32,000 nucleotides of DNA from Pseudoalteromonas translucida KMM 520 (GCF_001465295.1 NZ_CP011034.1:1980001-2012000), one strand, 5' to 3'. Shown: positions 4,158 to 26,310, numbered from the stretch's first letter. The notes: generated by a model from the sequence alone, not told the origin. A program made the numbers and translations.

Positions 4158-4158
4158 G

Positions 4159-7821: not shown

Positions 7822-7846
7822 ATTTCACCTTAAATGTCATCCGTGA

Positions 7847-10800
7847 TTATCTGATACGCACTTTATTGTTGCTATTAACTAATGTCGTTAGTTTTGCTTT
7901 TAGTGCTGATAAGTAGTCCTCAATATCTTGCTCGGTTTCTATCACACCAGCGGCATTTACCTCTCGCATCACACTTGAGGTATCAACAGAAACTATTTTT
8001 TTCGGTGTTGGTTTTGCTACTTTTTTTGGCTCAGTTTTTGTTGGTTTGTAGTTACCACTTTCTGAGTCTATACCTGAAGCTGATGCTGGTTCGGGGGCTT
8101 GTTTAGCCTTTTGTGCTACTTCTTTGGCTTTTTGCTCTGCGAGTGCTTGCTGTTGTTCAATGAACTTATTGATTAGTTCGTAGGCATCTTCTTCAAGTGT
8201 GGCAGCTTCAGTGATCTCTTGATGTATTTCAGCAATTCCTTGCAGTGTATCAACACGCTTTTTAGCATTTTGTAGTGGGTAAAGCGCTTTATTGCTAATA
8301 TCGCTGTTTACCGCGCCAGCGGCTTTAATTTGCTCAGTTACATGCTCGATACGAATATCGATTCTTGCCTTTGCATGAGTGCGCTTTTCAGTTAACAAAG
8401 CCTCGTTAACTTTGTTTACACTTTCAATAAGCGGTTCTACTTCGCGTATGTCACGGTACGGGCGCTCTTTATTAAAAATAGATTCTAACTTTTGCAGCGC
8501 TGCTATCGCATTTTCCTCTTTTTCGAGTGCTATGCGGTTGCGGTCAAAGTCGATAGTGAGTGCTTTGTACAACTTTTGCCAAGTTGAAAATTGAGTTTCG
8601 TAGAAGTTTTCAAGATCTTGGTAGTCTTCTTCAAAATCAAGTAGCTCATCACCATTAGCGAGGAATGATTCAATAAACTGATAGCTTGATTGCGCTTCAA
8701 TTAAACCCGCCAGTAATACTCGGCCATTCTCAATATCTTTAACACCTGGGTAATGCCCCGTTGATGCTTTGTTTGCAAAGCCATCAAGCTTCTTTTTCAT
8801 GGTGCTTATATTAGTTTGAGCAATGTTGAACAGCTCTTTTTCACTGTCTGGAGCATTTTTACCAAACACGTTTTTAAACAATTTAGCCGCACGGTTTAAG
8901 TTAGCTTCAGACTGTTGTTTAATACGTCGAATACGAAGCTCTGCGCGCTTTCTAACTTGTGTTAGATTGTCGTATGCACTTTTTAAAGGGACTTCTTGTT
9001 GACGCATTTGAAAGCAAATTTTGTTAGCTAATGCTAAACGCGAAATGATTAAAATTATTTCTTCATCATTCCAACCAAATGGACGTTTTGAAAAGCGTTT
9101 TACAATGTCTTCTGCGGTAATTGCTCTGCCAGTGTCATCGCCAAGGGTTATGAACTTTTCTACTTCTAAAGACGCTAACGGATTTATTTCATCAGCGTTT
9201 AAATCGAGACCAATTTGACTAACATCGTCTGCAACTAAGGTATTTTGAATCTCGCGGCGAATATCACCTGGAAATGGTTTAACTAACTTTAATTTACTGA
9301 ATGTGTTTTCAATTACGTAGCGATAAAGCTCTTGAAGTATTGAGCTTACCGCTCCGCCTTTTGGATTTTGTTTAGAGCCTAATGCGTAAAATTCAGCATC
9401 TTTTAGTAGCTCCTCTACTTCTCCTATCAAGCGGCGATTTCGATCTTGGTTTTCTGTCGCTTTTTGATGAAGTAACTGTTGTTGTTCTGGGCGTTTACCA
9501 GAGTTGCCGCGTAAAAACTTACTTGTTCGAATAAACGTTTCGATGTCTCTGAATACTCTGTTATTTTCAGCCAACTTGATGATTATCGAGCCACTATCAC
9601 CGTCCATTGAACGATTAGCACATACGGTAGATGTATATTCATCGTAGTTGGGATCTCTAGGTGTGATCACTTTCACTACTAAGTCGTTTTCTTGAGAGCC
9701 ATCTCGTGGACTACCATTACAAAAACGGCTGATAGGGAAATCTTGCTTGTTTTCAGGGTAGCGATAGTTCGCTTCACGACGCAGCACATCATCAAAAATT
9801 AGATCGCTAATCTTCTTAGTTTGATCAGATAACTCTATTTCAGTTTTTTGAATTTCCTGCTCAATTTCTTTTTCTTCGTTAGTAAGGAAAATGTACTCGT
9901 CACCTTGGCGAGCGATAAGCATATTAAGCTCTAGAGCATTTAAAGCCTGTTCAATTTCGCGCCTTAACGCTAATCGGTCTTCATCGACTTTGCCTACACA
10001 CAGGGTAACTAAGTTATCTAACGTTGACTTAATTACATCGACATAACGAATTAAAAACAGGGTTTTTAATATATTCAGCGTAAACGGCGATATAGATTCT
10101 TTAACGGATGCTTGGTCGATATCTTTTTTAACCGATGTATCGAGGAAACTTTCGATAGCTGGGTAGAAAAAATATAACGGAATTAGAACTCCGACATTTT
10201 CATTTCGGACTTGTTTGGCAGCACTTTGGAATGCATCTAACAAAGATCGCTCACCACGGCTTAAATGTAAGCCTGTTGCACCCGCTTTACGAATAGCTTC
10301 AAATATTTTTTGAACTAAAATATAATGATAAGGTACAAATGGATAGCTATTAATAAAGCTACTTGCATCTTTATAGTTAGCTAACTCAGCGGTTGTTGTA
10401 CTGTCAAAAGCTAACTGGTTTCTTAGAATGTCACCCTTTTGATCATACAAGTCCTGGAGCTCAATACGAGCCGCCTCTTCTTTTGATAGCAGGCGTTTCT
10501 CTATCACCTCACTGGTGTTTGAGCTTGAAAGAGATAGGCGTTCAAATCGGCCTTGGATTTTTGAGAAATCATGACCTTTTGAGCCTGTCATTTGCCCAAT
10601 TACTGCATCGATGTCTTCTTGAGAAGTAACAACGACCCAAGCACGGCCTTCACAAATAGTACCGAGGTTTTCAGTGATTGTTTGAAGTTTCAGCATCATC
10701 TGGGCGTTGTTACCAATGAACTGCCCCACTTCATCCACAAAAAACAACACTCGGCGGTCTGAGCTTACATCTAGGTATTCTTTTACCCATTTACAAAAGT

Positions 10801-11536
10801 TGCTAACGTCTAACGTGAAGTTGTTTTCAAGTTGCTCAACCCACTGCCTTGCTGATTCAGTTGATTGATTAGTTACCTTACCAAGCGCATCTGCCATGTC
10901 GTCTCGGAAGAAGTCGTAAGCATCTCTTTCTTCTATCCAGTTAGCAGACGCTAACGCATTGAACTCTTTTTTGAACTGTTCAAATACACCTCGTTGGTCT
11001 AATTCGCGTTCAAGGTGCGCAATATGAGGGTGATCTCCACTGAAGCCCATTTGCTCGTTAAAAACTTTTAAGAACACTTTTAATATTGCATCATCGCCGT
11101 CATCTGTGTTGGCACGGCTGTCGATATTAAAAAGGATGACGGTATTATCTTTGGTAACCGCAGTGTCTATTTCACCTAATAAGAAGCCATCTAGGTTTTT
11201 ATCTTTGAAAAACTCGATAGCTGATTTATCAAACTCACCGTTTGTCGCTTGAATGTTTTGTAAAAGGTATGACAATATTTTGATGAAGTGAGATTTACCT
11301 GAACCAAAAAAGCCACTTACCCAGATCCCTAATTTACCTGATGCAGCTTTTGCTTTTGGATCACGCACTGAAGGCATATACGCATCGAAGAACTCTTCGA
11401 AGTGTTTTGCTAATTCGGTGGTGATTACATATTCATCTAGCTCGGTAAAAACAGTGCTGTTTTCTAATTGGTCAGCTTTTACAACACCATTAATTGGTCG
11501 GTTTATATCTTTAGTAAATAAGTCTTTAATTTGCAT
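7847..11536 (-). CDS. brxC: BREX ATPase BrxC (P-loop NTPase)
   Basis: 1229-aa ORF with Walker A GFFGSGKSHF and Walker B VLFFVDEVGQF. It lies between the two small brxA/brxB-sized genes and pglX. A lysine/proline-rich low-complexity linker sits near the C-terminus. Confidence 0.9.
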   Translation of the reverse strand: MQIKDLFTKDINRPINGVVKADQLENSTVFTELDEYVITTELAKHFEEFFDAYMPSVRDPKAKAASGKLGIWVSGFFGSGKSHFIKILSYLLQNIQATNGEFDKSAIEFFKDKNLDGFLLGEIDTAVTKDNTVILFNIDSRANTDDGDDAILKVFLKVFNEQMGFSGDHPHIAHLERELDQRGVFEQFKKEFNALASANWIEERDAYDFFRDDMADALGKVTNQSTESARQWVEQLENNFTLDVSNFCKWVKEYLDVSSDRRVLFFVDEVGQFIGNNAQMMLKLQTITENLGTICEGRAWVVVTSQEDIDAVIGQMTGSKGHDFSKIQGRFERLSLSSSNTSEVIEKRLLSKEEAARIELQDLYDQKGDILRNQLAFDSTTTAELANYKDASSFINSYPFVPYHYILVQKIFEAIRKAGATGLHLSRGERSLLDAFQSAAKQVRNENVGVLIPLYFFYPAIESFLDTSVKKDIDQASVKESISPFTLNILKTLFLIRYVDVIKSTLDNLVTLCVGKVDEDRLALRREIEQALNALELNMLIARQGDEYIFLTNEEKEIEQEIQKTEIELSDQTKKISDLIFDDVLRREANYRYPENKQDFPISRFCNGSPRDGSQENDLVVKVITPRDPNYDEYTSTVCANRSMDGDSGSIIIKLAENNRVFRDIETFIRTSKFLRGNSGKRPEQQQLLHQKATENQDRNRRLIGEVEELLKDAEFYALGSKQNPKGGAVSSILQELYRYVIENTFSKLKLVKPFPGDIRREIQNTLVADDVSQIGLDLNADEINPLASLEVEKFITLGDDTGRAITAEDIVKRFSKRPFGWNDEEIILIISRLALANKICFQMRQQEVPLKSAYDNLTQVRKRAELRIRRIKQQSEANLNRAAKLFKNVFGKNAPDSEKELFNIAQTNISTMKKKLDGFANKASTGHYPGVKDIENGRVLLAGLIEAQSSYQFIESFLANGDELLDFEEDYQDLENFYETQFSTWQKLYKALTIDFDRNRIALEKEENAIAALQKLESIFNKERPYRDIREVEPLIESVNKVNEALLTEKRTHAKARIDIRIEHVTEQIKAAGAVNSDISNKALYPLQNAKKRVDTLQGIAEIHQEITEAATLEEDAYELINKFIEQQQALAEQKAKEVAQKAKQAPEPASASGIDSESGNYKPTKTEPKKVAKPTPKKIVSVDTSSVMREVNAAGVIETEQDIEDYLSALKAKLTTLVNSNNKVRIR

Positions 11537-11571
11537 GTTATTTTATCCTTGTTGTTTGATTGCAAGTCCGT

Positions 11572-12177
11572 TTACGGTACTAGTTTAAATGCACGATAAT
11601 AGTTATTTGATTCGATTCTGCCAAAGGGTTTTAACGCTGTACCGTCGTACTCACCAGGATAGAAAAGTACCGTTGGTACGTTGCCTACCTTAGCATGTAG
11701 AGCGTTTAATAAGCCGTGGCCACGAATAATAGGCCACGCGCTCCCAAGCCCATGAAGTAAAATGAACTCAGTTTTGTTTTTTTCACAAGAGCCGAAGTCT
11801 ATTTTTGAGGCGATAAATTCAGCGACTCGGTTTTGCTCAAGAGGCCCCTTTAATGCGTTGAATAACGCGTCATCACCGCGCTCTTTTTGTACTTTAAATG
11901 CTCTTTCAGTAAGTTTGCGGGAATCGAGCAATTCAATAATGGCTTCAAACAAGTTGATGCTTTTAAAATTACGCCCACGTTTATCAAGGCGCTCTGTCAT
12001 GTATTCTAAATGCTCTCTTACAGTCAATTCTGACTCTGGTGGGTAGTCAAATACGTAAAAGCCAATCTCGTTTCCTAAACCTTGGTTTTTTAAAAAATCT
12101 TCGCTTTCAATCTTGGGCTGAATTTCATCAAGCCGCTCATGAAGTCGTTTTTGTTGTTTAGTTTTAAGCTCAACCAT
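11572..12177 (-). CDS. brxB: BREX protein BrxB (DUF1788-type), assigned mainly by size and synteny
   Basis: 201-aa ORF. Its start overlaps the brxA stop by 1 nt (TAATG), and it lies immediately upstream of brxC. Confidence 0.7.
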   Translation of the reverse strand: MVELKTKQQKRLHERLDEIQPKIESEDFLKNQGLGNEIGFYVFDYPPESELTVREHLEYMTERLDKRGRNFKSINLFEAIIELLDSRKLTERAFKVQKERGDDALFNALKGPLEQNRVAEFIASKIDFGSCEKNKTEFILLHGLGSAWPIIRGHGLLNALHAKVGNVPTVLFYPGEYDGTALKPFGRIESNNYYRAFKLVP

Positions 12178-12800
12178 TAGTGCAACTCCATCGCTGAAAT
12201 AATATCGTCTCTGTTGATCTCTAGAAGCAAGTCTCTCACTTCTGGTAACAAATATACATTTTGTATTTTTTTATTCCGTGTTGTTTCTATATAACCAGCG
12301 TCAGCTATGGTTTTAAAAGCTACTTGAGATATTTTGTAAGTCGATGATTGTGACATTTGAGCTAACTCAGGGAATAATCTAATGCGTTCATCCCAAAAAG
12401 ACTCCCAATCAGCTACATCTAAACTTTCACGGAACATACGTTTAGCATCTAACACTACATTGCGCATAAAATCAGCAAGTAATGTGCAGTTAATTAACGT
12501 AGCTGCAAACATTAACTGAGTTGATAGCTCAGTGCTACCAAATGCGATTAGTTCTAGGTATTTGTCTGACATATCTTCTAAACGCTTTTTGATAGTAGCC
12601 GCATTCCTCTTTGCTGAAGCGTCAGAGCGTTTTTGTAAAATATTTTGGTTTACAATGGCTTCTAACCACTCTTTTTGTGACGGTTTTTTAAGTAATAGCT
12701 CAGCGACTGTCTGACTTTCTTTGATCATTAAGCTGCCACCAATAAGGTCGCCAAGGTAGTCTTTGTATGAATTCATTTGTATTATGCTTGGAGTCGTCAT
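12177..12800 (-). CDS. brxA: BREX protein BrxA (DUF1819-type), assigned mainly by size and synteny
   Basis: 207-aa ORF. It is the first structural gene after the WYL regulator, abuts the brxR stop codon and overlaps brxB. Confidence 0.7.
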   Translation of the reverse strand: MTTPSIIQMNSYKDYLGDLIGGSLMIKESQTVAELLLKKPSQKEWLEAIVNQNILQKRSDASAKRNAATIKKRLEDMSDKYLELIAFGSTELSTQLMFAATLINCTLLADFMRNVVLDAKRMFRESLDVADWESFWDERIRLFPELAQMSQSSTYKISQVAFKTIADAGYIETTRNKKIQNVYLLPEVRDLLLEINRDDIISAMELH

Positions 12801-13688
12801 TTATAGTTCTTCCAATTCAGGCACATAACCAGGAGCAATTGCTAAGTTTTCTGCGCCGAAAAGGGTTTGACGGTTTTTGAGCCACAGTTGGTATTCAGCA
12901 CCAACAAGTTCTGCATCAGCGGTACAATCAACATTCCAACGTCTCAATAAATAACCAGCCATAGCAGCCCTCACATTCAGCGACAGTTTTCCTCCGTCCA
13001 TTCCATAGTCTAATGCGATTGCAGTAGGATGACTTACGTTATGGGGGTGAGGAACGAGTTGTAACGGCATCATGCGCATCCAATGGTGGTCGCTTATTTT
13101 GACTTCTAAAGGTTGTATCTCTGAATATTCTAATACGGCCTTTGTAATTCTAGTTAATACAAAATCCCGAAAACTGTTAGATTTACGATCATAAGCTCTC
13201 ACATGCCAGCGCAAACCATTATCGACGATACTGTGGGGAACGATATCTCTTTCTCCTGAGCCGCTACTTAGGGAGGTGTAAGTGATATTAACTGCTTTTT
13301 GATTAATTACTGCTTGAACCAACTTTGCGACAATAAAAATATCAGGAATATTTAACTGGCTTGGCGCTTCGACGGGGAATGTCGTATCGCCAATAGCATC
13401 AAAGCCATCGGTTATTTGGTTAGAAAGTTTTACAAGGGTTTTGCGAGGGTCATGTGTGAATAAGGGCCTAAAGCCCGCAGCTTGAAAATATCTCTTTTCT
13501 TTTGAGTCATATACCATATTTTCAGGGCACAACTCTTTATAGAGATTGATATCACGAGTAGCCGAGGTTAACCCTTTCTCGAAATAAGAAACTATTTCAG
13601 CTCTCGTAACATATCCAACAAAAAAAAGTTTAAAATCAATGTATGACAAACGTTGTTTTTGAGTAAAGCCAATATTGTTTAAATTCAT
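12801..13688 (-). CDS. brxR: WYL-domain transcriptional regulator, BrxR-like
   Basis: 295-aa ORF at the head of the BREX operon. The N-terminal region resembles a winged HTH (QRLSYIDFKLFFVGYVTRAEIVSYFEKGLTSATRDINLYKE). The central segment GLRWHVRAYDRKSNSFRDFVLTRI is typical of WYL domains. Size and position match BrxR-type regulators of BREX loci. Confidence 0.7.
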   Translation of the reverse strand: MNLNNIGFTQKQRLSYIDFKLFFVGYVTRAEIVSYFEKGLTSATRDINLYKELCPENMVYDSKEKRYFQAAGFRPLFTHDPRKTLVKLSNQITDGFDAIGDTTFPVEAPSQLNIPDIFIVAKLVQAVINQKAVNITYTSLSSGSGERDIVPHSIVDNGLRWHVRAYDRKSNSFRDFVLTRITKAVLEYSEIQPLEVKISDHHWMRMMPLQLVPHPHNVSHPTAIALDYGMDGGKLSLNVRAAMAGYLLRRWNVDCTADAELVGAEYQLWLKNRQTLFGAENLAIAPGYVPELEEL

Positions 13689-13938: not shown

Positions 13939-14169
13939 TTAGTTAATTATCGACTTTTTATACGTGATTATCTCTTCTATTTTGCAGTCGAAGTAAGCAC
14001 ATAATGCATCCAAAGTACGCGTCGTTGTTGAGTAATTATTGTTATTAGCCATTTTAGACATAGCGGCTTTATTTACTCCTGCGGCATTTGCAACTTCATC
14101 TAACGTAATTTTACGTCCCTCTTTCAATGACTTAGCTGCGATTAATTCCTTTAAGTTATAAACAATCAT
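13939..14169 (-). CDS. XRE/Cro-CI family helix-turn-helix transcriptional regulator
   Basis: 76-aa ORF. Segment ITLDEVANAAGVNKAAMSKMANN is a classic HTH. It is divergent from the xis-int operon across an 87-bp intergenic region. Confidence 0.8.
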   Translation of the reverse strand: MIVYNLKELIAAKSLKEGRKITLDEVANAAGVNKAAMSKMANNNNYSTTTRTLDALCAYFDCKIEEIITYKKSIIN

Positions 14170-14193
14170 TTTAATACAACCAATTATTTAAAA

Positions 14194-14256
14194 AGTTTCT
14201 TTACAGGATACTTTCTATATGATTTAATCACTTTAGTTTCTTGTGAGGATACTTCT
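14194..14256 (+). promoter_or_regulatory. two 22-23 bp direct repeats plus a candidate sigma70 promoter for the xis-int-HD operon
   Basis: AGTTTCTTtacAGGATACTT (14194-) and AGTTTCTTgtgAGGATACTT (14235-) are spaced 41 bp apart. Candidate promoter is TTTACA (14200-14205), 17-bp spacer, TTTAAT (14223-14228). The SD GAGGA (14245-14249) lies 7 nt before ATG 14257. Confidence 0.4.
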
Positions 14257-14508
14257 ATGATTAAAAATGAATTTACTTTGCTTTCTGCTAAAGAACTTTC
14301 AAGCTTTATTAAGTTCAGCCCAGATTACATTAACCGTAAGTTGAAAGACAATGTTTTTTTTGAGGGTGAGCATTACATTAGACCTTTTGGATCAAGAAAA
14401 ATACTTTACCTTTTAGAAAGTGTAATGGAAGAAATGTACAACACCACGTATAAAGCTGAGCGCGAATTTGTCATTCCTCTCGCAAGTGGAGGTGTATGTT
14501 ATGGCTAG
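14257..14508 (+). CDS. excisionase/AlpA-like small DNA-binding protein (recombination directionality factor candidate)
   Basis: 83-aa ORF immediately upstream of the integrase and overlapping it by 8 nt. LLSAKELSSFIKFSPDYINRKLKDNVFFEGEHYIRPFGSRKILY resembles the Xis/MerR-type HTH-plus-wing pattern. Confidence 0.55.
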   Translation: MIKNEFTLLSAKELSSFIKFSPDYINRKLKDNVFFEGEHYIRPFGSRKILYLLESVMEEMYNTTYKAEREFVIPLASGGVCYG

Positions 14509-15712
14509 TGTAAGAAGCCGAAACGATAAGTTGTTTTTTGATTTTTATTATCAAAATATACGATGTCGTGAGCAGACCTTACTCAAGGATACAAAAGCTA
14601 ATCGTATCAAACTTGAGAAAGTTCTAGAAAATATTGAAATTCAAATTATGCTCGATCGTTTTGTTTACCGAGATATGTTTCCGAATAGTAACCGCTGCAA
14701 GGCATTTAAACTGTTTGATGACCAGATAGAAGCTATAAAAGCTAATGAAACGAATAAAGCTGATGTTATTTTACAGAATGTACCTAACTTCGAGGCATTT
14801 GCTTATGAGTGGCTAGAAGAAAGTAAAATTCATTGGAAAATTAGTCATTTTAAAAATGTGTCTATGATCTTTGAGCGTTATTTAATTCCTGAATTTGGCA
14901 AGTTTAATCTTGATGAAATAAGCCGTGCTCATATTATTAAATATCGCGCGGGCATATTAGAGCCTAAGCGTAGTAGTAAAAAACAATTGAGTAATGATTG
15001 GATCAATCATGTTATGACACCTCTTAGAGGCATACTTAAAGAAGCGTCATTACGTTATGATTTTCAAACTCCTTTTAACAATATAAAACCACTAAAAGTA
15101 GTTAAAACCAAGATAGAACCTTTTTCACTCAATGAAGTTCAGCAATTTCTTAAGTATGTAAGAAGTGATTTTCGTAATTATTATACCGTTCGCTTTTTTA
15201 CTGCGATACGAACAGCAGAGATTGATGGCCTCAAGTGGGAATACGTTAACTTTGATCGAAATGAAATTACTATTCATGAAACCTTAGTTGATGGCAATGT
15301 TGAGACACCTAAAACAGCCACATCATATAGAAATATCCAGCTATCTAGAGTTGTTGTTGATGCATTAAAAACACAATTCAAAATAACTGGTAAGAACACT
15401 TATGTTTTTTGTAATAAAAAAGGTAACCCTCTTGATCATCGAAATATAACTAAAAGGGTATGGTATCCAACGCTAGAAGAGCTCTCTTTAAAGAGGAGAC
15501 GCCCTTATCAAACAAGACATACATGCGCAACCTTATGGCTTTCTGCTGGTGAAAATCCTGAATGGATAGCTAAACAAATGGGTCACAGCACGACTAAAAT
15601 GCTATTTGAAGTTTATAGCCGTTATGTTCCAAACAATACTCGACAAGATGGTAGTGCTTTTGATCGCCTACTTCTAAATGCCAACATTGAAGAAGAGGCT
15701 ACTTATGAATAA
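14501..15712 (+). CDS. int: tyrosine site-specific integrase with N-terminal arm-binding domain
   Basis: Start chosen at ATG 14501 (MASVRSRNDKLFFDFYYQNIRCRE, an arm-type DNA-binding domain pattern), preceded by GGAGG. Catalytic signature: AIRTAEIDGLKW (R), KTATSYRNIQL (K), TRHTCATLWL (R-H), MGHSTTKMLFEVYSRY (H, Y). Confidence 0.9.
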   Translation: MASVRSRNDKLFFDFYYQNIRCREQTLLKDTKANRIKLEKVLENIEIQIMLDRFVYRDMFPNSNRCKAFKLFDDQIEAIKANETNKADVILQNVPNFEAFAYEWLEESKIHWKISHFKNVSMIFERYLIPEFGKFNLDEISRAHIIKYRAGILEPKRSSKKQLSNDWINHVMTPLRGILKEASLRYDFQTPFNNIKPLKVVKTKIEPFSLNEVQQFLKYVRSDFRNYYTVRFFTAIRTAEIDGLKWEYVNFDRNEITIHETLVDGNVETPKTATSYRNIQLSRVVVDALKTQFKITGKNTYVFCNKKGNPLDHRNITKRVWYPTLEELSLKRRRPYQTRHTCATLWLSAGENPEWIAKQMGHSTTKMLFEVYSRYVPNNTRQDGSAFDRLLLNANIEEEATYE

Positions 15713-16562
15713 CTATATCTATGGTTGGTTAAAAAATTTACATATTAATGGTACTTTGCCAACAGCCAATTGTGAGCTATTGATAAGTAAGCAAATAATT
15801 TACGCTATTACATCTGCTGATATTGCTAGAAAATGCCAAATAGTGTCTGGCTTAGCTCAATTTCAGTTAACTCACGATATAATGGGTAATCATGTTGTTT
15901 GTGATATAGAGCCTATACTTTCTCAATGTAACGAACAGCAGTACCTTAATTTAACTTCGATGATAAATAATACAAATGAGCATTTAATAGCACGATTTTT
16001 TAAGCTGCTTAGCTTTGTCACATGCAGTGAGTTGCAGCCTTTTATTGATTTTATTTTAACTAAACAAAGCATTTTACAAAAATTCATACAAGCACCGGCT
16101 AGCCTAAACCACCATCACTCTTATACTCATGGATTGTTTGAGCACAGTATAGAGGTAGCTGAAATTGCATTTAATAATGCTAAACACTTAAATCATTCCA
16201 GTATTGAATGCCAAGCTGCATTAGTAGCTGGCTTATTTCACGATATTGGTAAAATATTTGTCATGCTACATCAAGCCAACGATCGCTACATACCAGGACC
16301 ACACGAAGGTTATAACTTTGCTATCTTAGCTGAACCTTTAGCGAAGCTAGGCAGTCGTAATAGGCAATTGCTGGAGTTATTAAGCAGTTTATTAGCAGCC
16401 AAGCCATCTGGCTATCAAGCGAGATATGCAATTGAGCATATTGTGCAACAAGCTGACCGATGCTCTTCTGAATCAGCTTTTATACATGCTAAATTTCAAG
16501 AGCTTCCTGATTATTACCATTTTTGTAAAGTTGGCGATAAAGTTCTTAAAAGAATGAGTTAA
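15705..16562 (+). CDS. HD-domain (metal-dependent phosphohydrolase superfamily) protein, translationally coupled to the integrase
   Basis: Start chosen at ATG 15705 (GAGG 6 nt upstream), with an 8-nt overlap of the int stop. Motifs HHHSYTHGLFEHSIEVAEIA and VAGLFHDIGK give the H...HD signature. Confidence 0.75.
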   Translation: MNNYIYGWLKNLHINGTLPTANCELLISKQIIYAITSADIARKCQIVSGLAQFQLTHDIMGNHVVCDIEPILSQCNEQQYLNLTSMINNTNEHLIARFFKLLSFVTCSELQPFIDFILTKQSILQKFIQAPASLNHHHSYTHGLFEHSIEVAEIAFNNAKHLNHSSIECQAALVAGLFHDIGKIFVMLHQANDRYIPGPHEGYNFAILAEPLAKLGSRNRQLLELLSSLLAAKPSGYQARYAIEHIVQQADRCSSESAFIHAKFQELPDYYHFCKVGDKVLKRMS

Positions 16563-16595
16563 CGTTTTAAAATACCTAAACTTAATTTGAAGCTA

Positions 16596-19500
16596 TTAAG
16601 GGGCTTCGCCGGCCCTATAACTTATAATAAGCAGCAAATGAAGAAAGCTCATTAAGCTATGGTGGCGCCTCGACTTTTTATATGTACCTTTACTACCCTT
16701 TACTGTAATTAATAATCCAACTTCTAAAAAGCCATTGCCATTATGTTTACCTAGAAACCTGCCCTCCTCAATTGAGGCGCTTTCGATGTGACTATCGCTT
16801 AATCCAAATGACGAAACTAATTCTTCCCAGTAAGACCTCGCTTGAATAACATTTTGATTTTGTAAATCTACTTGATGAAAACGAAATTTGAAGTGGCTCG
16901 ACTTTAATTTAAATTTTATACATAAATTTAAAAAGTTGCGTATTACTTGCTCATCAGGACAACGAAGAGCGAAATTCTTCCCTGCAGCACCATATTTCAA
17001 TATTTGTAGGGCATCAAATGCTTCACTAAGCGTTACATTTTTCTGACTTAATAAAGTATCAAATTTCTGACATAAATAATAAAATGCTTTTTGTGAAGAA
17101 ACTCTTTTTAAGTCATCTTTAGTATTATCTAAACTTGGGAAGTTAGGAATTAAGGGCAGCTTTTTACCTTTCCTAGGATATTCTCTGCTTACACTCAGAG
17201 CATTATCATGTAATTTTTGAACTTGCTCCACAGGGAGTGAGTAACTCGATGCTGTATCGTGTATTGAGTTTAGTTCTAGCGATTTAAGAGCATTTGCATA
17301 ATCTAACATTCTTATTTGCCCATCAGCTTCAAACTTTTGTTTAAAACCTTTAAACGATGGTGTGATTAAATCACTAACCTTACCCGCATATTGGATCGAA
17401 TAGTCTTGCTCTTGTTTTTTACTATAAAATTCAATTCTTTCAATTAAACTTTCACCTGGCATAAACTCCTTAAAATTAGCTCTCCCTATACATTCAGATA
17501 AAAAATACTTAGATACTGTATATGTCTGATTCATTTGAGCGCAATGCTGTATGTCCTTTAAGTGTAAATAGCTATTTAGTGTCGACACAGTGACTTTATG
17601 ACCAAGTAAATGAGACAAAAAAAACATTTTTGAGCGAGTATTGTCTTTAACTTTTAATCTTTTGTTAAAGTGAGTAATAAAACTTTGATCAAATAAGTCA
17701 TTTTCAAATATAGATAAATACTGCCTTCCCGTTAATACCAAGTTTGAATTTAATCTGTACCAAGTCCAATTAGCAAAGCTATGTCTTAGGTGATGAATTC
17801 TTAGAGTATGATCCTTAGTATAGTAATGCAGTAATTGCGTTAATAGCTCGTATGCTTTATTTACGCTAACAGAGCAGTTAAATAACAATGAATTTGATGG
17901 CTTATTTTCAGTGTTTTTTTGAACGTCATAAAAGCTTCTTAGCTTAGTTAAATGCTCTTTTGGCCATAACGCATCTAGGGGTAGTTCTCTTCTAGCTGAA
18001 GGTGTTTTTAAACCCCTTATTTTATTTGGTCTGATTGATAGTAGAACCCAATCATATTCGCCTTCATTTGGCTTTATAGGTGAAACCTGAATATCACCAA
18101 AGTACAGCTTAGCGGCTTCATTACGGCGCAAGCCACTATAAAAACAAAAACACATTAATAAATATGCATATAACTCAACCGGACTGTTATTGAGGCTGTC
18201 ACTTAAATATTCAAGAATTGCGCTTACATGACTAGCTGAAACTAAATTAGCATCAACTTTACTTTGGACAGGAGCTATATCAAGATCGTCAATACACAAG
18301 TCTTTGACAATTTCAGACTCTATTAAAAACACAGAGAAATAATATAAATACTTTTTACGTTGGGCAGAATTAAAATATTCACTCGTATCATTTAACTTTA
18401 TTGCCCAATCTGACGCTGATATTACTGCTAGATCAGTTCGAGTAAAAACATTTAAAAAAGGTTCACTGATACTTTTCACATAATCAATTACTGTGTCTAC
18501 TTTTAACTTCTTTTTAGTTACCCCTCCCTCTTTCAAAAGGTAATAAAGCCAACCACACAAAATATTGAAATAAACACTATTTTTATCATTTTTCAATTCT
18601 TGTTCAACAAATTTAATGCACTGTGCCCTTGAAGCTCTTTGGCCATTCAGTTCCCTCAAGTTTTTATAGGTATACTCTAACTTGGCTTTTATTAATTTAG
18701 GCTCAATATAATCAAAGCTGTCACTATCAAATGACAATAGCTTATTAAGCTCATTAAATTTCTTAGGTTGTTTTGCTATTTCGTCTGCAACTAATGCCTT
18801 ATTACTTATTAACCTTAAAAAAGCTGTTTGAGGTAGCTCGGTACAGGTACTAGACCGTAAATACATCTGATAGTCGATAGGGCTGAGGTTGATTATAGTA
18901 TCTATTTTTCTAAGTGTTCGTAATTTTAAAAGTGACAAGCTTTGCCAATTTGTACCACTAGCTTCTGTTAAAAACGTTATTATAAATTCACTTAATCTAT
19001 TTTTATTTACTCGTATTTTCTCAGACGGCTTAATGAAGTTTTTATGATGTAATAATAAAAGGACAACAGCATCACATAGTACGTATCGTCGTTCCTCTTT
19101 TTCGCTTTTCCCATACCAAAATACTTGACCACCTAAATACATTAAAGCATCCGGGGCATTTATGATTGTAATAAGCTCGTCAAACTGAACACCTGTTGTC
19201 ATATATAAAACTAACCGACCATAACTAGCTTCTTTTGATAAATTAGCAGTTGGTGTTTGTAGCTCTTTACTTAATATTGACTTAATTTGGAGTGCTATCG
19301 GTAGTTTTATTAATTCTACTGGTGATAACATAGGTTTATCGCGCTTTAGTACGACGATTTGAGGGACTTTTGAAGATTCAATACCATGATGCTTTAATCC
19401 ATAATTTAATATAGCATCAATAAGCATGAGCTGAAGGTGTTTAATCGTTAAGTCTTCTTTTAACCGTGACTTTAAAATGTTCATTTCACTAGAAAGAACA

Positions 19501-19703
19501 TTCTCATCGGATTTTTTAAAATACCTAAGCATTAGCATGCATAGCTTTTTATATTCGTTTAAAAAATCATCATCGCTGAATCTAATTCCAAAGTCATTAT
19601 CTGAGCAGTTTCTATAAGCATTTACAATCTGTTGAAAACATTGATGGAACTTACCTTGCTTCTTCAGTTCATTTAAATAAGATCGGACTTTAGAGTTTGC
19701 CAT
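16596..19703 (-). CDS. giant (1035 aa) tyrosine-recombinase-family protein with large N- and C-terminal extensions
   Basis: Complete catalytic signature in the middle of the protein: YSGLRRNEAAKLYFGDI (R), GLKTPSARRELPL (K), LRIHHLRHSFANW (HxxR), LLGHKVTVSTLNSYLHL (H, Y). A strong SD (AAGGGGG) precedes ATG 19703. It overlaps the upstream ORF by 31 nt. Confidence 0.75.
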   Translation of the reverse strand: MANSKVRSYLNELKKQGKFHQCFQQIVNAYRNCSDNDFGIRFSDDDFLNEYKKLCMLMLRYFKKSDENVLSSEMNILKSRLKEDLTIKHLQLMLIDAILNYGLKHHGIESSKVPQIVVLKRDKPMLSPVELIKLPIALQIKSILSKELQTPTANLSKEASYGRLVLYMTTGVQFDELITIINAPDALMYLGGQVFWYGKSEKEERRYVLCDAVVLLLLHHKNFIKPSEKIRVNKNRLSEFIITFLTEASGTNWQSLSLLKLRTLRKIDTIINLSPIDYQMYLRSSTCTELPQTAFLRLISNKALVADEIAKQPKKFNELNKLLSFDSDSFDYIEPKLIKAKLEYTYKNLRELNGQRASRAQCIKFVEQELKNDKNSVYFNILCGWLYYLLKEGGVTKKKLKVDTVIDYVKSISEPFLNVFTRTDLAVISASDWAIKLNDTSEYFNSAQRKKYLYYFSVFLIESEIVKDLCIDDLDIAPVQSKVDANLVSASHVSAILEYLSDSLNNSPVELYAYLLMCFCFYSGLRRNEAAKLYFGDIQVSPIKPNEGEYDWVLLSIRPNKIRGLKTPSARRELPLDALWPKEHLTKLRSFYDVQKNTENKPSNSLLFNCSVSVNKAYELLTQLLHYYTKDHTLRIHHLRHSFANWTWYRLNSNLVLTGRQYLSIFENDLFDQSFITHFNKRLKVKDNTRSKMFFLSHLLGHKVTVSTLNSYLHLKDIQHCAQMNQTYTVSKYFLSECIGRANFKEFMPGESLIERIEFYSKKQEQDYSIQYAGKVSDLITPSFKGFKQKFEADGQIRMLDYANALKSLELNSIHDTASSYSLPVEQVQKLHDNALSVSREYPRKGKKLPLIPNFPSLDNTKDDLKRVSSQKAFYYLCQKFDTLLSQKNVTLSEAFDALQILKYGAAGKNFALRCPDEQVIRNFLNLCIKFKLKSSHFKFRFHQVDLQNQNVIQARSYWEELVSSFGLSDSHIESASIEEGRFLGKHNGNGFLEVGLLITVKGSKGTYKKSRRHHSLMSFLHLLLIISYRAGEAP

Positions 19704-22210
19704 CCTACCCCCTTAAATAACTTATCTAGAATAGGTAATAATTCATTTACAGAATCTATGTAATTTAGTGTCGAATAATTAGCTAAAGGAACCTCACCAG
19801 ACTGCCAATGGCCCATTTGAAAGTTTATTAGCTCTGAATTAACGTTGTTATAAAGCAAATTACTTTTAAGCCAATGCCTTCCTGCATTTGCAGGTATTTT
19901 ATGTTCCTTAGGTAACCTGAGAACTAACTCTGTAGGAGAAATACCTTTAGTAACAATTCCAGCTCTTTGTCTTTGAAATATGAATAAAGGTCCATGATTT
20001 ATACGTGAATTTCTAATTAGCTTAAACCACTGACAAGATTCTTTGTAATCGAGATTTAAGCTTTTAGAGGCGGCATTTAAAAAGTCATCTATTGACTGGC
20101 ATAACTTGGGCTTTAATACTCTTATTAACCCTCTCAAACAACTAAGGTGCTCTTGATAAGCTGTGATTTGCGCATTTAAAATAGACGGTAAACAAACTAA
20201 TCTAGAATGCGTAAAATCACTATCATCTTTATCACTTATCCCCATGAGGTTTAGCGTTGGAAAATACAGGGAAAAAGTTGGTAACGGGTTCCAAACAGCC
20301 CGATAACCCGTTCCAAACATTAACATCCATGCCGTATAGACTGTAAACGCGTTATGGTATTTTAAGATTGCATCTAGTTGTTTTAAAGAGTTTAACTTAG
20401 TGTTTTTAACTTCTAATGCCAAAGCTGCTATGAGGCTCTTAACTGTCATATTCTCTGGTGTAAATTTAGAACCAAGCATACGATTACGCTTATCAAAACA
20501 CACTAATTCAAAAAGTTTTATAGGGAATTTTTCTTTACAATAATCATAGTAATCAGACTCAACTTCTTGCCAAAACTCAAATAGCCTTTCACACCGCGTA
20601 ACATCATCAATATTACTATAGCTTCTAGATACTCGAGTAGAATACATTTTTACATCGTAACTAAAATCTATATAAATAGGGTCAATCACACCTGTTGCAT
20701 TAATATAATTTCCAATAAAATTACTAATGCTATTGATACTTAGCCTTCCGCTATAAGCTTTATCTGATACCTTTTTTAATTTTTTGGCTAAACTGTTTTC
20801 AAGTGCTGCAAAACTGTCTACGTTAATAAGTAAACCTTCTTTTCTGCCCTTTAAATATTTAATTATTAAATCTGTTAAAAATGTAGGACAGGCTGTAAAT
20901 ACACCATTTGCTGTTTTAATAAGACCAACTTTTTTAATCGTTGGTTTAGCAGTTTGAGTTATAGGAAAATACCACCAACCACGGTCATTTTCATCTAGAA
21001 ACAAACCTCGTGTTTTGTCATCTATTTTATTAAATATCTGTAAATCTTTTATCTCATGCAACGTCTTACCCAACAAAAACATCAGCCATCCCAATATCGC
21101 TAGCTCAATATTTTTATCGGAATGGCCATACTTATTTAGTGTATCAAATAATAAACCCAGTTCTGGCGCCTTTAATAATCGCGTATCTTGGTAAGCAATA
21201 TTATGAGCTCTGTGCACATTACGAGTTATATCTATCTGTTTTTTCTTCTTAGAGGCGGGACTAAAAATCATTTCAATACTTTGATGCTCGGTTTTATCTC
21301 GTACAGTATTACCTTCATTGTTATCAATTACAAAAGGCATCTGAACCTCTGAATCTTCAGGGTTAAGTCCCTCTGTATCTGATAAAAAGTTTAAAGATGG
21401 TATTAAAACTGACAAATTATCAACAGCCCCAGTAATAGGTAAAGTATTAGGTTTTTTATACCATTTAGCGATGGAGCCTCTGTAACGGCCTCCTCGTTTA
21501 TACAGCCGAGCTGGTTGCCAGTCATTCTTATAAAAATGAATTAAAGTATTTAAATAACCTCTATCCGTTACATTATTAGTATATATATCATTATTAATAA
21601 TTGACTCTAACTTACTCGCGATTGACGAAGCTGAATCAAGGTAGTTTGTTAATATTTTATCTTTATCAGGTTCGAAGGCTATATTGGACTTTTTCATTAA
21701 TAAGCGAAACTTATTACAAACCTCAGCTTCTCTTGTAGATGAGCTTGTAGCTAATTCAGGATCGATGAGTGTATGTATTGTTTTAAAATAATTACCAATA
21801 AAATTAGCAAGAAGATTTAATGATTTTGAATCTTGCTTATACTCATATGATTTAATAAGTAATACATAGAATGGTATCTCATTGCACCAACCATTTTTAT
21901 ATGTGCTGCGATTAAAACTCTCTCTTGAGCTTGCATCTAGCTCAACTCCATACTCATTAAAGGCATAATAAATATACTCAGGAAGACATAGTTCACTTTT
22001 AGTAAACTCCCATAGCTTTCGTGATGCATCATTCATCCTTTTTAATAATAAAAAAACTTGTGATAAACCACTCAAATCTTCAGGAGCACTTATGCGAGAA
22101 GTAAAATCATCAAAGTCAGATTTTATATCCTCGATACTGATTTCCAAGTTTACCCCTTTGCAATACAACTCAATATGCTCAAGAAGCTTAACCTTTAGCA
22201 TACCCGTCAT
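19673..22210 (-). CDS. giant (845 aa) tyrosine-recombinase-like protein with non-canonical catalytic residues
   Basis: C-terminal region: MFGTGYRAVWNPLP (R), PANAGRHWLKSNL (xxxR-H, with N in place of the first His), QMGHWQSGEVPLANYS (H-W...Y). The start overlaps the stop of the 192-aa ORF (ATGA). Confidence 0.6.
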   Translation of the reverse strand: MTGMLKVKLLEHIELYCKGVNLEISIEDIKSDFDDFTSRISAPEDLSGLSQVFLLLKRMNDASRKLWEFTKSELCLPEYIYYAFNEYGVELDASSRESFNRSTYKNGWCNEIPFYVLLIKSYEYKQDSKSLNLLANFIGNYFKTIHTLIDPELATSSSTREAEVCNKFRLLMKKSNIAFEPDKDKILTNYLDSASSIASKLESIINNDIYTNNVTDRGYLNTLIHFYKNDWQPARLYKRGGRYRGSIAKWYKKPNTLPITGAVDNLSVLIPSLNFLSDTEGLNPEDSEVQMPFVIDNNEGNTVRDKTEHQSIEMIFSPASKKKKQIDITRNVHRAHNIAYQDTRLLKAPELGLLFDTLNKYGHSDKNIELAILGWLMFLLGKTLHEIKDLQIFNKIDDKTRGLFLDENDRGWWYFPITQTAKPTIKKVGLIKTANGVFTACPTFLTDLIIKYLKGRKEGLLINVDSFAALENSLAKKLKKVSDKAYSGRLSINSISNFIGNYINATGVIDPIYIDFSYDVKMYSTRVSRSYSNIDDVTRCERLFEFWQEVESDYYDYCKEKFPIKLFELVCFDKRNRMLGSKFTPENMTVKSLIAALALEVKNTKLNSLKQLDAILKYHNAFTVYTAWMLMFGTGYRAVWNPLPTFSLYFPTLNLMGISDKDDSDFTHSRLVCLPSILNAQITAYQEHLSCLRGLIRVLKPKLCQSIDDFLNAASKSLNLDYKESCQWFKLIRNSRINHGPLFIFQRQRAGIVTKGISPTELVLRLPKEHKIPANAGRHWLKSNLLYNNVNSELINFQMGHWQSGEVPLANYSTLNYIDSVNELLPILDKLFKGVGWQTLKSDLI

Positions 22211-22785
22211 AATTTAATCACTTTTGTACTAATTTTAAGCCATTTACATAATTCTGTTTTTGTTTTAATAGCTGGAAATAAGGTACGCCATTCTGTTGAA
22301 TCAATTACTGGTTGTTCACCTTTGAATAAGCCAATAAGTAACTCTGAGATTAAAGGGCCGGATGCATTAAAGTACTGCTTAAAAAGTAGCCGAACAATAT
22401 CATTAAGAAAAATTAAACGTCTAAGATCGGGTGTCGGACGATTAGGAAGGATCAAACATGGGACAAGTTGATTTGACTGATCTTGAAGTCGACAAACTTT
22501 ATGAAATGTAAATAAGCCAGAGACTAGTTTTAACTTTTCATTATCAGTTTTATATCCAATTATCGGGGCTTGATAAGCATCAAGTTTCCAAGTAGTAATT
22601 GTATCAAAGCTGTCGTTTGAACTTGGTTTTAAAAACGAAAATAAATTTATATTACTGATTAAATTATCTATGGTTTTTTCAAGGGTAATATTTTCTGCGA
22701 CAATATACTCAAATGTAGACCTGTCTAATAATTCATCGATCTTTTTTAATTTGCCTTCAACATTCTCATCAATCATATTCAGCAC
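22207..22785 (-). CDS. hypothetical 192-aa protein, first gene of the dual-recombinase operon (possible accessory/DNA-binding subunit)
   Basis: The ORF is translationally coupled (ATGA) to the 845-aa gene. No motif recognised. The start may be GTG 22785 or ATG 22776. Confidence 0.5.
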   Translation of the reverse strand: MLNMIDENVEGKLKKIDELLDRSTFEYIVAENITLEKTIDNLISNINLFSFLKPSSNDSFDTITTWKLDAYQAPIIGYKTDNEKLKLVSGLFTFHKVCRLQDQSNQLVPCLILPNRPTPDLRRLIFLNDIVRLLFKQYFNASGPLISELLIGLFKGEQPVIDSTEWRTLFPAIKTKTELCKWLKISTKVIKL

Positions 22786-22936
22786 CAGAACAATAAGTAG
22801 TCATTTTTGACATTTTCATAATGTGCCTAAATAGTGCCCAGATCAAGCTTTAAATGTTCGTAAAACACTCAAAAACAGATTTTAATATTAACTAAATTTT
22901 ATCTAAGTTATTGTAATAATATGCAATTCATTATAT

Positions 22937-23380
22937 TTACTGGAGATTATTATTTATAGAAGCAGTTAAACTAACGTCTTGACATGGTAGGGGTCGGTGG
23001 TTCGATTCTTGGGTTTCGTCCATCCGAAATTGAAATATCCAGCGATAGCCATGTGAACATGTTTCGTCTTCTCTGCGTTTAATTGCTTGTGCAATCTGTG
23101 GTGCTCTTTCTAAACTTAAAGCCGCTGCCGTCCAAGTCGCGGGAACATTATATTTATCTAATAAATTAATAATTCTCGACGCGCCTTCTTTAATCCCATA
23201 CTGATAATTGGATTCATTACCATAGTTGCGCATTGGCTTTTTCAAATAAACTTGAAGCTCATCTACAGGCTCCATGCCTTTATCGCCATCTTTAATGCTG
23301 TACTCAGACCCTTCTTCTACATTCACAACTATTGACATTGCTAGGCGTTTATTGTTTGGCCACTGATAACTTTTAGGCAT
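22937..23380 (-). pseudogene. polysaccharide deacetylase (PuuE/chitin-deacetylase-like) gene, 3'-truncated by the island junction
   Basis: The first ~115 aa match the family pattern (RLAMSIVVNVEEGSEYS...YGIKEGASRIINLLDKYNVPATWTAAALSLERAPQIAQAIKRREDETCSHGYRWI). Family members are about 300 aa. After 23,036 the ORF reads through junction/tRNA-like DNA for about 30 unrelated codons. Confidence 0.75.
22988..23022 (+). other. tRNA 3'-end-like relic (T-loop-like GGTTCGATTC ... GTCCA) at the island/chromosome junction; not a functional tRNA
   Basis: Sequence is GGTAGGGGTCGGTGGTTCGATTCTTGGGTTTCGTCCA. The T-loop consensus GGTTCGATTC lies at 22999-23008 and a CCA end at 23020-23022. The flanking T-stem (GGTGG/CTTGG) and upstream sequence do not fold into a cloverleaf. 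Confidence 0.3.
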
Positions 23381-25455: not shown

Positions 25456-26310
25456 TGTGAACTTCCAACAGTTGTAATGAGTGATCGTGGTATACCTACC
25501 TCATATAGACATATGCATGGTTTTGGCTCACACACCTATAGTTTGTGGAGTGAAGCCGGTGAGCGCTTTTGGGTGAAATTTCATTTTCGTACACAGCAAG
25601 GTATTAAAAACTTAACTGATACAGAAGCTGCTGAAATAGTCGCTATGGATCGTGAAAGTAATCAAAAAATTTATTTGAATCGATTGAGCGCGGCGACTTC
25701 CCTAAATGGAAATGTATGTGCAAATTATGCCTGAAGCCGAAGCTGATAACGTGCCGTATCATCCTTTTGATTTAACTAAAGTATGGCCTAAAGGTGATTA
25801 CCCACTGATTGAAGTAGGTGAGTATGAGTTAAATAAAAACGCTAATAACTACTTTGCCGATGTAGAGCAAGCTGCTTTTTCACCGAGTAATTTAGTACCT
25901 GGAATTGGCGTATCACCCGATAAAATGCTGCAAGCCCGTTTAATTAACTACGCTGATGCACAGCTCTACCGTGTAGGTGTGAATCATAATCAAGTGCCGG
26001 TAAATCAACCTCGCTGCCCTGTTAATAGCAATGCGCGCGATGGACAAGGCCGCGTTGATGGTAACTATGGGCAAGGCCACACTACGACTTCCGTGAAGAC
26101 GATAGCGACTACTTTAGTCAGCCACGCGCTCTTTTTAACTTAATGAATGATGAGCAAAAACAAGCGCTATTTAGTAATACGGCGGCACAAATGGGTGATA
26201 CCTATGACTTTATTAAATATCGTCATATTCGTAACTGTAATCAGTGCGATCCTGCCTATAGTGAAGGTGTTGCTAAAGCCCTTGGGATGACTGTTTCTGA
26301 TGCAATATAA
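25456..26310 (+). pseudogene. catalase (monofunctional, small-subunit type) pseudogene: 5'-truncated, at least three frame changes and an internal deletion
   Basis: Three frames join into catalase sequence. Frame 1: [47 protein letters not shown]...ESNQK. Frame 2: ([15 protein letters not shown]). Frame 3: [87 protein letters not shown]. Then, after a further frame change, [32 protein letters not shown]...DPAYSEGVAKALG and a stop at 26308-26310. The N-terminal ~190 aa, including the heme-pocket region, are absent. Confidence 0.85.

Follow-up and report, generated by a model that had tools for sequence, protein, structure and literature searches.

Here, three overlapping genes encoding proteins of 192, 845, and 1035 amino acids (aa) were analyzed in a 32,000-nucleotide (nt) stretch of DNA from Pseudoalteromonas translucida KMM 520 (GCF_001465295.1, NZ_CP011034.1:1980001-2012000), hereafter called the window. 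This trio, uncharacterized in the libraries and literature searched, is a tyrosine-recombinase module of several components that sits at one border of a mobile element. The gene set and its catalytic residues are conserved, the operon lies at the end of a genomic island, islands of this family move between sites, and the trio is under purifying selection also where no integrase gene is found nearby. From these comparisons we put at about one half (0.5) the probability that the trio is, or is required for, the recombination machine of the island; the trio, rather than the integrase encoded next to it, would then perform or be needed for recombination, with the 192- and 845-aa proteins in the individual roles proposed below.

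An initial annotation, made from the sequence of the window, had described three overlapping, translationally coupled genes. The open reading frames (ORFs) and their overlaps, 4 nt between the 192- and 845-aa genes and 31 nt between the 845- and 1035-aa genes, were confirmed from the coordinates (Table 1), and the same overlaps recur in homologous loci. All motifs quoted in that annotation for the two large proteins are present at the places given there. The G+C content of the trio region amounts to 32-33%, as compared to approximately 41% in the flank (23-24 kb) and 38-40% in the BREX (bacteriophage exclusion) cargo to the left of the trio.

Judging from its catalytic set and from profile and fold comparisons, the 1035-aa protein belongs to the tyrosine recombinase superfamily. 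Its motifs GLRRNE, LKTPS, HHLRHS, LGHK, and SYLH start at residues 524, 565, 637, 700, and 711, respectively. Residues R526, K566, R640, H641, H702, and Y712 are invariant in all twelve divergent homologues compared, some of which are approximately 22% identical, and H637 is kept in ten of the twelve; the R-K-HxxR-H-Y set read from the single sequence is therefore borne out, R526-K566-R640-H702-Y712 being kept in every homologue examined. Approximately 380 N-terminal residues precede a core-binding and catalytic core at about residues 385-725, which is followed by approximately 300 C-terminal residues with an alpha/beta pattern. The score against Pfam Phage_integrase (PF00589), 25.9 bits, falls just below the cut-off of 27.1, and an integrase family of PHROG is matched at an E-value of 8.5e-10. 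Comparison by hhalign of the 1035-aa family with the family of the integrase encoded next to the trio gave a probability of 82% over residues 272-726, and with the catalytic domain alone 94% (E 1.5e-7). The AlphaFold model reached a pLDDT (predicted local distance difference test) of 55, and its interpretable part is the recombinase core only; with this low-confidence model, the top 14 Foldseek matches were all XerA, IntI, XerH, Tn1549 Int, or Cre, over approximately 360-400 columns.

The 845-aa protein consists of approximately 600 N-terminal residues without an assigned role and a C-terminal tyrosine-recombinase-like domain formed by the last 230 residues, with the motifs GYRAV (635), NAGRHW (775), MGHW (799), and ANYS (810). 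Alignment of this domain with the integrase family by hhalign had modest support (probability 54%, E 1.3e-4) and placed box I and box II in register (GTGYRA/TAIRTAE, NAGRH/YQTRH, QMGHW/QMGHS, NYS/VYS), in line with the divergent recombinase version that had been claimed for this protein. R637, K661, N775, R778, and H801 are invariant in the family, N775 replacing the histidine of HxxR. Conservation of the catalytic residues among homologues thus differs between the two partners: invariant in the 1035-aa protein, the set is not conserved family-wide with its nucleophilic tyrosine in the 845-aa protein, since Y812 is replaced by N, H, and H in the three most distant members (L016, L018, and L019). 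Members with a replaced tyrosine come from Methyloprofundus, Aeromonas, and Acinetobacter, and fusion proteins carry F or E at this position. Loss of the tyrosine makes a second active recombinase improbable for most of the family; the 845-aa protein is best seen as a recombinase-fold partner, comparable to Tfp and GinC of the SE and GInt elements. No match was obtained in Pfam, NCBIfam, PHROG, or PADLOC. The structure prediction, made with four near-identical sequences, was not usable (pLDDT 31), and a full-length hhalign comparison of the 845- and 1035-aa families was discarded, the catalytic residues being out of register.

An exhaustive profile search detected single proteins of approximately 1800-1900 aa that join 845-like and 1035-like parts. 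In two of these, P0077 (1923 aa) and P0124 (1797 aa), the N-terminal half is 845-like and lacks the tyrosine, and the C-terminal half is 1035-like with the full catalytic set. Such natural fusions argue for a physical complex of the two proteins. The heteromeric recombinase pair suggested earlier is hence supported indirectly as a pair, but not as two active recombinases, given the lost tyrosine of the 845-aa protein.

For the 192-aa protein, no match was found in Pfam, NCBIfam, PHROG, PADLOC, or PDB. In 69 of 73 loci, the 845-aa gene is immediately preceded by a small ORF, and the two often overlap by ATGA; 65 of these ORFs are homologous according to iterative hidden Markov model searches. 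A PxI...sGlfTy pattern in the 192-aa family gives a ParB-like impression, which is not put forward here as an assignment. A C-terminal stretch of the protein (...KTELCKWLKISTK...) appears to resemble a helix-turn-helix, and we propose that it is a DNA-binding accessory. A possible target lies just upstream of its gene: the approximately 220 nt of island DNA beyond the 192-aa gene hold a 51-bp block and, farther out, a tRNA-Val core (Table 1). The block is kept where the proteins share only 35-47% identity, and was also found in L002, L006-L013, L026, and L028; by contrast, the approximately 120 bp between block and core are not kept. It may represent a promoter, an operator, or a binding site for the recombinase or another protein. 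The block contains two GGCAC(A) repeats 11 bp apart, followed by a GTCA-N5-TGAC inverted repeat/TGACCAC, and its GG-N10-GC spacing (xGGCAC-N5-xAGGCA) is like that of a sigma-54 promoter. A scan for sigma-70 promoters gave fewer sites than in shuffled sequence.

According to the initial annotation, the trio sits at the extreme end of the island beside a disrupted target gene. The disrupted gene was verified as a truncated puuE, coding for the N-terminal half of allantoinase, but the island does not end at position 22785: the junction lies at approximately 23005-23008 inside puuE, the joint between island and puuE being on the outer side of TCGAACCACCGACCCCTACCATGTCAAG, a 28-nt core identical to tRNA-Val(GAC) from the T-stem to the anticodon-loop. 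Below approximately 23005, the puuE ORF is read-through into island DNA. In L004-L013 and L021-L024, TCGAACCACCGACCCCTACCATGTCAAG runs on into a genuine tRNA-Val 3' half, and the identity between sister islands ends at the core on the flank side. Since sister islands end in the same way in a real tRNA-Val gene, the window represents an insertion at a secondary site. Loci of Pseudoalteromonas and Shewanella show a distance of 187-209 bp between the start of the 192-aa gene and the point where the island meets the 3' half of tRNA-Val(GAC); the operon reads inward, and an intact tandem tRNA-Val is often near this junction. Several clades have a 3' tRNA fragment (Val-GAC, Asp-GTC, and others) 750-1100 bp upstream of the 845-aa gene, i.e., upstream of the small gene. 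The trio is a conserved, inward-reading unit at island ends. A distant clade (L042, L044, and L047) has an end of the type TATTCAGGCTTGGCT... approximately 430 bp upstream of the small gene, without a tRNA fragment and in at least two different flanks, which indicates that the choice of target differs between clades.

Three independent insertions outside tRNA genes, namely those of the window, L002, and L020, share the island-side boundary TCGAACC, and in all three CAWGAA stands directly outside this boundary (window 23001-23011; L002 ~6670-6690; L020 ~3585-3600). Moreover, each shows a 4-5-nt match (CAAGA or CATG) to the anticodon-loop end of the core; CAWGAA and this match may reflect a target preference or a donor footprint that was carried over. 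The island of L020, in a non-tRNA flank, and that of L022, in a tRNA-Val flank, are 98.7% identical over backbone and cargo, which shows that whole islands relocate. In the simplest model, strands would be exchanged in the T-loop of tRNA-Val, and pseudo-sites would be used occasionally. A backbone of 9.06 kb (13955-23008) is common to the window and five other loci at 98-99% identity; the identity ends on the cargo side at 13955-13967, at the stop codon of a Cro-like gene, and on the flank side at the T-loop position. BREX is one of several cargos behind this shared backbone. The far end was looked for in the window and in L002, where neither a further core copy nor a tRNA acceptor-like sequence was detected. 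A 22-nt direct repeat in L023 (160-190 and 12700-12735) belongs to IS3-family ends flanking the Shewanella island region and is not an island boundary. An apparent match to PuuE in L013 is only the translated tRNA-like core.

As the most likely reading, we propose that the three genes encode one site-specific recombination machine in the conserved end-module of a family of integrative islands. The 1035-aa protein would be the catalytic tyrosine recombinase. The 845-aa protein would bind it and act in a structural or regulatory role and not as a second cutter, since its nucleophilic tyrosine is lost in much of the family, and the 192-aa protein would serve as a DNA-binding adaptor, probably recognizing the block of GGCAC repeats and TGACCAC that lies between operon and island end. 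The complex would act on the island terminus, i.e., the tRNA-Val-like core with its outer boundary in the T-loop, and would circularize the island and re-insert it, normally at tRNA-Val and occasionally at look-alike sites such as puuE in the window. This proposal draws on the terminal, inward-reading, coupled operon, the natural fusions, the invariant catalytic residues, the co-conserved cis block, the movement of islands as units, the defense-rich variable cargo, and the selection acting on the trio, and its spread, where no integrase is near.

Word-indexed searches returned ten relatives of the 1035-aa and three of the 845-aa protein, and a profile query for the latter did no better, so that the family at first appeared rare; this impression was corrected by exhaustive HMMER searches and pattern scans. 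For the 1035-aa family, 1670 cluster representatives were detected at E ≤ 1e-3, 874 at 1e-10, and 88 at 1e-30, most of them 1000-1100 aa long. In species-representative genomes, metagenomes, and plasmids (tblastn), approximately 90 loci have an 845-like gene immediately followed by a 1035-like gene. The order of the trio with start/stop overlaps was observed in Pseudoalteromonas, Shewanella, Paraglaciecola, Aeromonas, Acinetobacter, Methyloprofundus, and many metagenomes, and, as the pair only, in Sphingobium. In the public annotations consulted, the large proteins are labeled either "integrase" or "hypothetical protein". Viral contigs contained no relative, profiles of the three proteins retrieved nothing meaningful from PDB sequences, and literature searches on giant, large, or heteromeric tyrosine recombinases yielded no account of this trio.

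In a Shewanella clade, the trio is present with no integrase gene within 6.5-10 kb after it, and the cargo comprises Zorya-like genes and a TIR protein. The 845- and 1035-aa genes of this clade show ratios of nonsynonymous to synonymous substitution rates (dN/dS) of 0.07-0.36, mostly below 0.2, at dS of up to 1.8. One such island is that of S. gaetbuli DSM 16422 on contig JAKIKP010000007. S. gaetbuli and S. subflava share 97.9% nucleotide identity only between tRNA-Val and the 1035-aa stop codon; the flanks on either side are unrelated, which suggests that this block spread horizontally not long ago. In Shewanella phaeophyticola (L011, 9992-15658), at the same tRNA-Val site, the 845- and 1035-aa genes are split into four ORF fragments apiece, beside an intact 192-aa gene; this trio is a pseudogenized, decaying copy.

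The Shewanella block would also fit a trio that is a separate selfish unit or resident platform of approximately 6.5 kb (core, cis block, and three genes) that lodges at tRNA-Val or at island attachment sites, beside which unrelated cargo and integrase modules gather: the shared DNA runs exactly from tRNA-Val to the 1035-aa stop codon, different DNA starts at once, and the trio occurs both with and without the integrase module. However, a second core copy or a tRNA 5' half after the 1035-aa gene was seen in no locus, the unit of identity in Pseudoalteromonas is the 9.06-kb block including the integrase module, and backbone and cargo move together, which makes this explanation improbable.

The cargo of trio islands is rich in defense genes (BREX, Zorya-like genes, the TIR protein, and type I-Fv CRISPR-Cas). 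The trio might therefore itself be cargo without a role in mobility, e.g., a defense or anti-plasmid system with a recombinase-fold nuclease parked in a hotspot between integrase and attachment site. Besides the defense-rich setting, this would agree with the much faster divergence of the trio as compared to the integrase and with the two extensions of the 1035-aa protein (380 residues at the N-terminus and 300 at the C-terminus), to which no function is assigned. By contrast, none of the three proteins matched PADLOC-DB 2.0, the recombinase catalytic set is complete and invariant, and very divergent members keep the same position, orientation, and distance to the terminus, together with a co-conserved cis block, which would not be expected of cargo. 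Such a role for the trio is highly unlikely.

The initial annotation did not mention the canonical integrase module that faces the trio across 33 bp. This module consists of a Cro-like regulator gene, divergent from the gene of an 83-aa protein which, from its position, would be Xis-like (excisionase-like), an arm-type integrase gene whose true start is likely the ATG at 14501, and a gene for an HD/MobH-like protein that is convergent with the trio. The Cro-like gene is the last of the conserved 9-kb backbone, and the variable cargo, here BREX, begins after its stop codon. The match of the HD protein is confined to the relaxase-like N-terminal part of MobH/TraI_2, a helicase part being absent; the protein may make the island mobilizable by a conjugative element. 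In 47 loci with at least 3.5 kb available after the 1035-aa gene, the same integrase family and the 83-aa gene follow the trio in 29, in nearly all of them convergently, and the HD protein is encoded in 22. This arrangement spans Pseudoalteromonas, Aeromonas, and Methyloprofundus. In Acinetobacter plasmids, the trio is followed by a different arm-type integrase and by type I-Fv CRISPR-Cas. The module resembles ordinary phage integrases and also occurs without the trio: on the 12-kb Acinetobacter lwoffii plasmid pALWED3.4 (L100, 612-2580), a Cro-like/small-protein/DUF3596-integrase module of 48% identity lies beside a gene for a DUF1376 protein, with no trio or HD gene. The island as a whole is of the tRNA-integrating type, having an arm-type integrase, a Xis-like gene, and a tRNA 3'-fragment junction, which in the window is the 28-nt remnant.

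These genes support the alternative that the canonical integrase with its Xis-like partner carries out integration into and excision from the tRNA gene, and that the trio has an accessory task in DNA processing for the same island. It might then resolve multimers or tandem arrays of the excised circle, act in directionality or copy-out replication, or provide a recombinase-fold relaxase working with the HD/MobH-like protein, for which MpsA of SGI1 and TcpM of pCW3 offer comparisons. The integrase shows the full domain set of heterobivalent phage integrases, the pairing with the trio lasts from Pseudoalteromonas to Aeromonas and Methyloprofundus and is echoed by the unrelated arm-type integrase of the Acinetobacter plasmids, the 9.06-kb backbone travels with both modules as one unit, and the SE literature raises a large tyrosine recombinase as a possible relaxase. 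On the other hand, 18 of the 47 loci lack the integrase; the trio is under strong purifying selection and spreads between species in a clade where neither an integrase nor an HD gene lies within 6.5-10 kb; and the trio, not the integrase, is nearest to the terminus and the conserved cis block. We regard an accessory function as somewhat unlikely.

The same module accounts for most of what weighs against the trio as the recombination machine, or as a necessary part of it. A complete Cro-like/Xis-like/arm-type integrase set, facing the trio in the majority of the surveyed loci and kin to ordinary phage integrases found elsewhere without it, could do all tRNA integration and excision alone, and as such an integrase adjoins the trio, the role of the latter in mobility is putative. 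In Aeromonas, the integrase is far better conserved than the trio (49% vs. approximately 22% identity), and all three secondary-site insertions sit in islands that carry the integrase. Furthermore, L003 and L019 differ in how integrase and trio are placed relative to each other, and in L003 the small gene is directly preceded by integrase genes and not by the island end. The Shewanella islands may carry another integrase, because no far end of an island was recovered. Finally, both structure models are poor. The earlier suggestion of undescribed integration machinery holds in that no curated family matches over the full length and both large proteins are recombinase-like, with the trio a candidate for the integration machinery. 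The farther-reaching version, in which the trio is a self-sufficient tyrosine-recombinase transposition machine of an undescribed class, with a giant catalytic recombinase, a giant pseudo-recombinase that is sometimes fused to it, and a DNA-binding adaptor, which together move defense islands independently of the integrase and target tRNA T-loops and, at appreciable frequency, secondary sites, is a tentative possibility and on balance doubtful.

Table 1. Coordinates of the trio, the island terminus, and neighboring features in the window.
Feature	Position	Strand	Remarks
192-aa gene, first of the operon	22207-22785	(-)	GTG start; ORF call
845-aa gene	19673-22210	(-)	ORF call
1035-aa tyrosine recombinase gene	16596-19703	(-)	ORF call
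Conserved cis block, CTTGAT-N3-GGCAC-N5-TAGGCACA...AAATGTCA-N5-TGACYAC	22797-22847	(-)	51 bp, upstream of the 192-aa gene
Island terminus, TCGAACCACCGACCCCTACCATGTCAAG (28 nt identical to tRNA-Val(GAC), T-stem to anticodon-loop)	22978-23005	(-)	Unique in the window
Truncated puuE (N-terminal half of allantoinase)	22937-23380	(-)	TIGR03212, E 2.8e-24, profile positions 13-140 of 297
HD/MobH-like protein, 294 aa	15678-16562	(+)	PF01966 HD and PF07514 TraI_2 above cut-off; NF041494 MobH, E 1.2e-9, partial
Arm-type (DUF3596) phage-like integrase, 414 aa	14468-15712	(+)	Arm-DNA-bind_2, Phage_int_SAM_3, and Phage_integrase above cut-off
83-aa protein in excisionase position	14257-14508	(+)	No Pfam match; upstream of and overlapping the integrase gene
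Cro/C1-type helix-turn-helix regulator, 76 aa	13939-14169	(-)	PF13443 HTH_26, E 8e-13; divergent from the 83-aa gene
BREX type 1 set (WYL regulator, BrxA, BrxB, BrxC, two PglX paralogues)	348-13688

Within the BREX cargo, two PglX-like methyltransferase genes have the same orientation, one of full length (4159-7821) and the other a two-piece match to the PglX model (348-3695), and a 153-aa ORF without a domain match lies between them; the pair might represent a specificity variant or what is left of a duplication. Neither PglZ nor BrxL is encoded in the window. In the chromosomal flank, a catalase gene (25477-26143) is split into two overlapping ORFs covering Pfam Catalase positions 173-237 and 251-372, with the N-terminal third gone, and is probably a pseudogene.

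BREX, Zorya, and CRISPR-Cas are spread by islands that often have no known mobility genes. Should the trio drive movement, it would offer a search handle for defense and cargo islands in Gammaproteobacteria from marine and clinical settings (Shewanella, Aeromonas, and Acinetobacter) as well as a natural pair of a catalytic and a pseudo-catalytic recombinase, possibly a programmable system for the integration of large cargo. A self-sufficient machine would add a further group beside integrative and conjugative or mobilizable elements, SE, GInt, RIT, and Tn554 (PMC10214605) and the Gamma-Mobile-Trio (GMT), and even a mere helper of the integrase would be a new accessory function of integrative elements. 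Under either reading, two facing recombination modules at one island end are unusual.

Among known systems, the GMT (GmtY, GmtZ, and GmtX) likewise comprises three genes at one border of genomic islands, and is annotated by NCBIfam according to the paper describing it (Mahata et al., bioRxiv 10.1101/2023.03.28.534373). Both trios combine two proteins of the tyrosine recombinase family with a small, putatively DNA-binding protein, are co-transcribed at one island border with defense-rich, variable cargo downstream, and insert at intergenic or intragenic sites. Membership in the GMT would also imply that circle formation, and replicative insertion into a site containing repeats, depend on all three genes. 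However, the small gene comes last in the GMT (order Y-Z-X at the 5' border of the island) and first in the trio studied here, the border position and downstream cargo being matched; the proteins of the latter measure 845 and 1035 aa, with the tyrosine kept family-wide in one partner only; and its primary target is a tRNA gene, with a canonical integrase/Xis-like module usually accompanying it. Searches of NCBIfam release 20.0 at E ≤ 1 gave as the sole match XerC for the 1035-aa protein (E 0.56), none for the 192- and 845-aa proteins, and none to GmtY, GmtZ, or GmtX. The proteins of Tn554 are much smaller than the large proteins of the trio. In Tn554, which is found in Staphylococcus and Enterococcus, TnpA, TnpB, and TnpC (two tyrosine recombinases and a small, essential third protein) are encoded at the element end and mediate site-specific transposition via a circle (PMC10214605). 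The gene order there is A-B-C with the small gene last, whereas here the small gene is first and there is one catalytic recombinase; the difference in size and order pointed out in the initial annotation was upheld by order and composition. Additionally, the non-tRNA junctions of trio islands carry 28 nt of tRNA-like DNA and not a 6-bp footprint copied from the flank of the donor, and no match to Tn554 beyond the generic recombinase core was found in Pfam or NCBIfam.

The SE (IntA-Tfp-IntB-Srap) and GInt (GinABCD) elements also have a terminal, coupled operon (PMC10214605, PMC5385486) and occur in Gammaproteobacteria including Shewanella and other Alteromonadales (PMC10214605). Their Tfp and GinC have a recombinase fold without the catalytic tyrosine, as does the 845-aa family largely, and both groups possess a small auxiliary protein. 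In contrast to their four genes with two catalytic integrases, the trio has three genes with one RHRY-type enzyme, and it is set apart by composition and BLAST; tblastn of the 845- and 1035-aa proteins against 72,556 plasmids retrieved the trio's own family only. Islands of the lambda/P4 style (arm-type Int and Xis at a tRNA) share the module and the tRNA 3'-fragment junction with the island as a whole, but here the 6.4-kb trio lies between integrase and attachment site and persists in islands without that integrase. RITs encode three catalytic recombinases of ordinary size, in contrast to one catalytic giant, one degenerate giant, and one non-recombinase protein here; their three genes, including tyrosine recombinases, are adjacent (PMC10214605). 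Tycheposons were checked as well and do not fit. No full-length match to a characterized family was found, and sizes and order differ from those of Tn554, GMT, SE, GInt, and RIT; as no curated family covers the trio, it does not appear to be a known transposon or integrase family under another name. Taken all together, membership of the trio in Tn554, GMT, SE, or GInt fails as judged by sequence, gene order, and composition, while the trio appears analogous to all of them in the logic of a border module that sits at one border of the element and reads inward.

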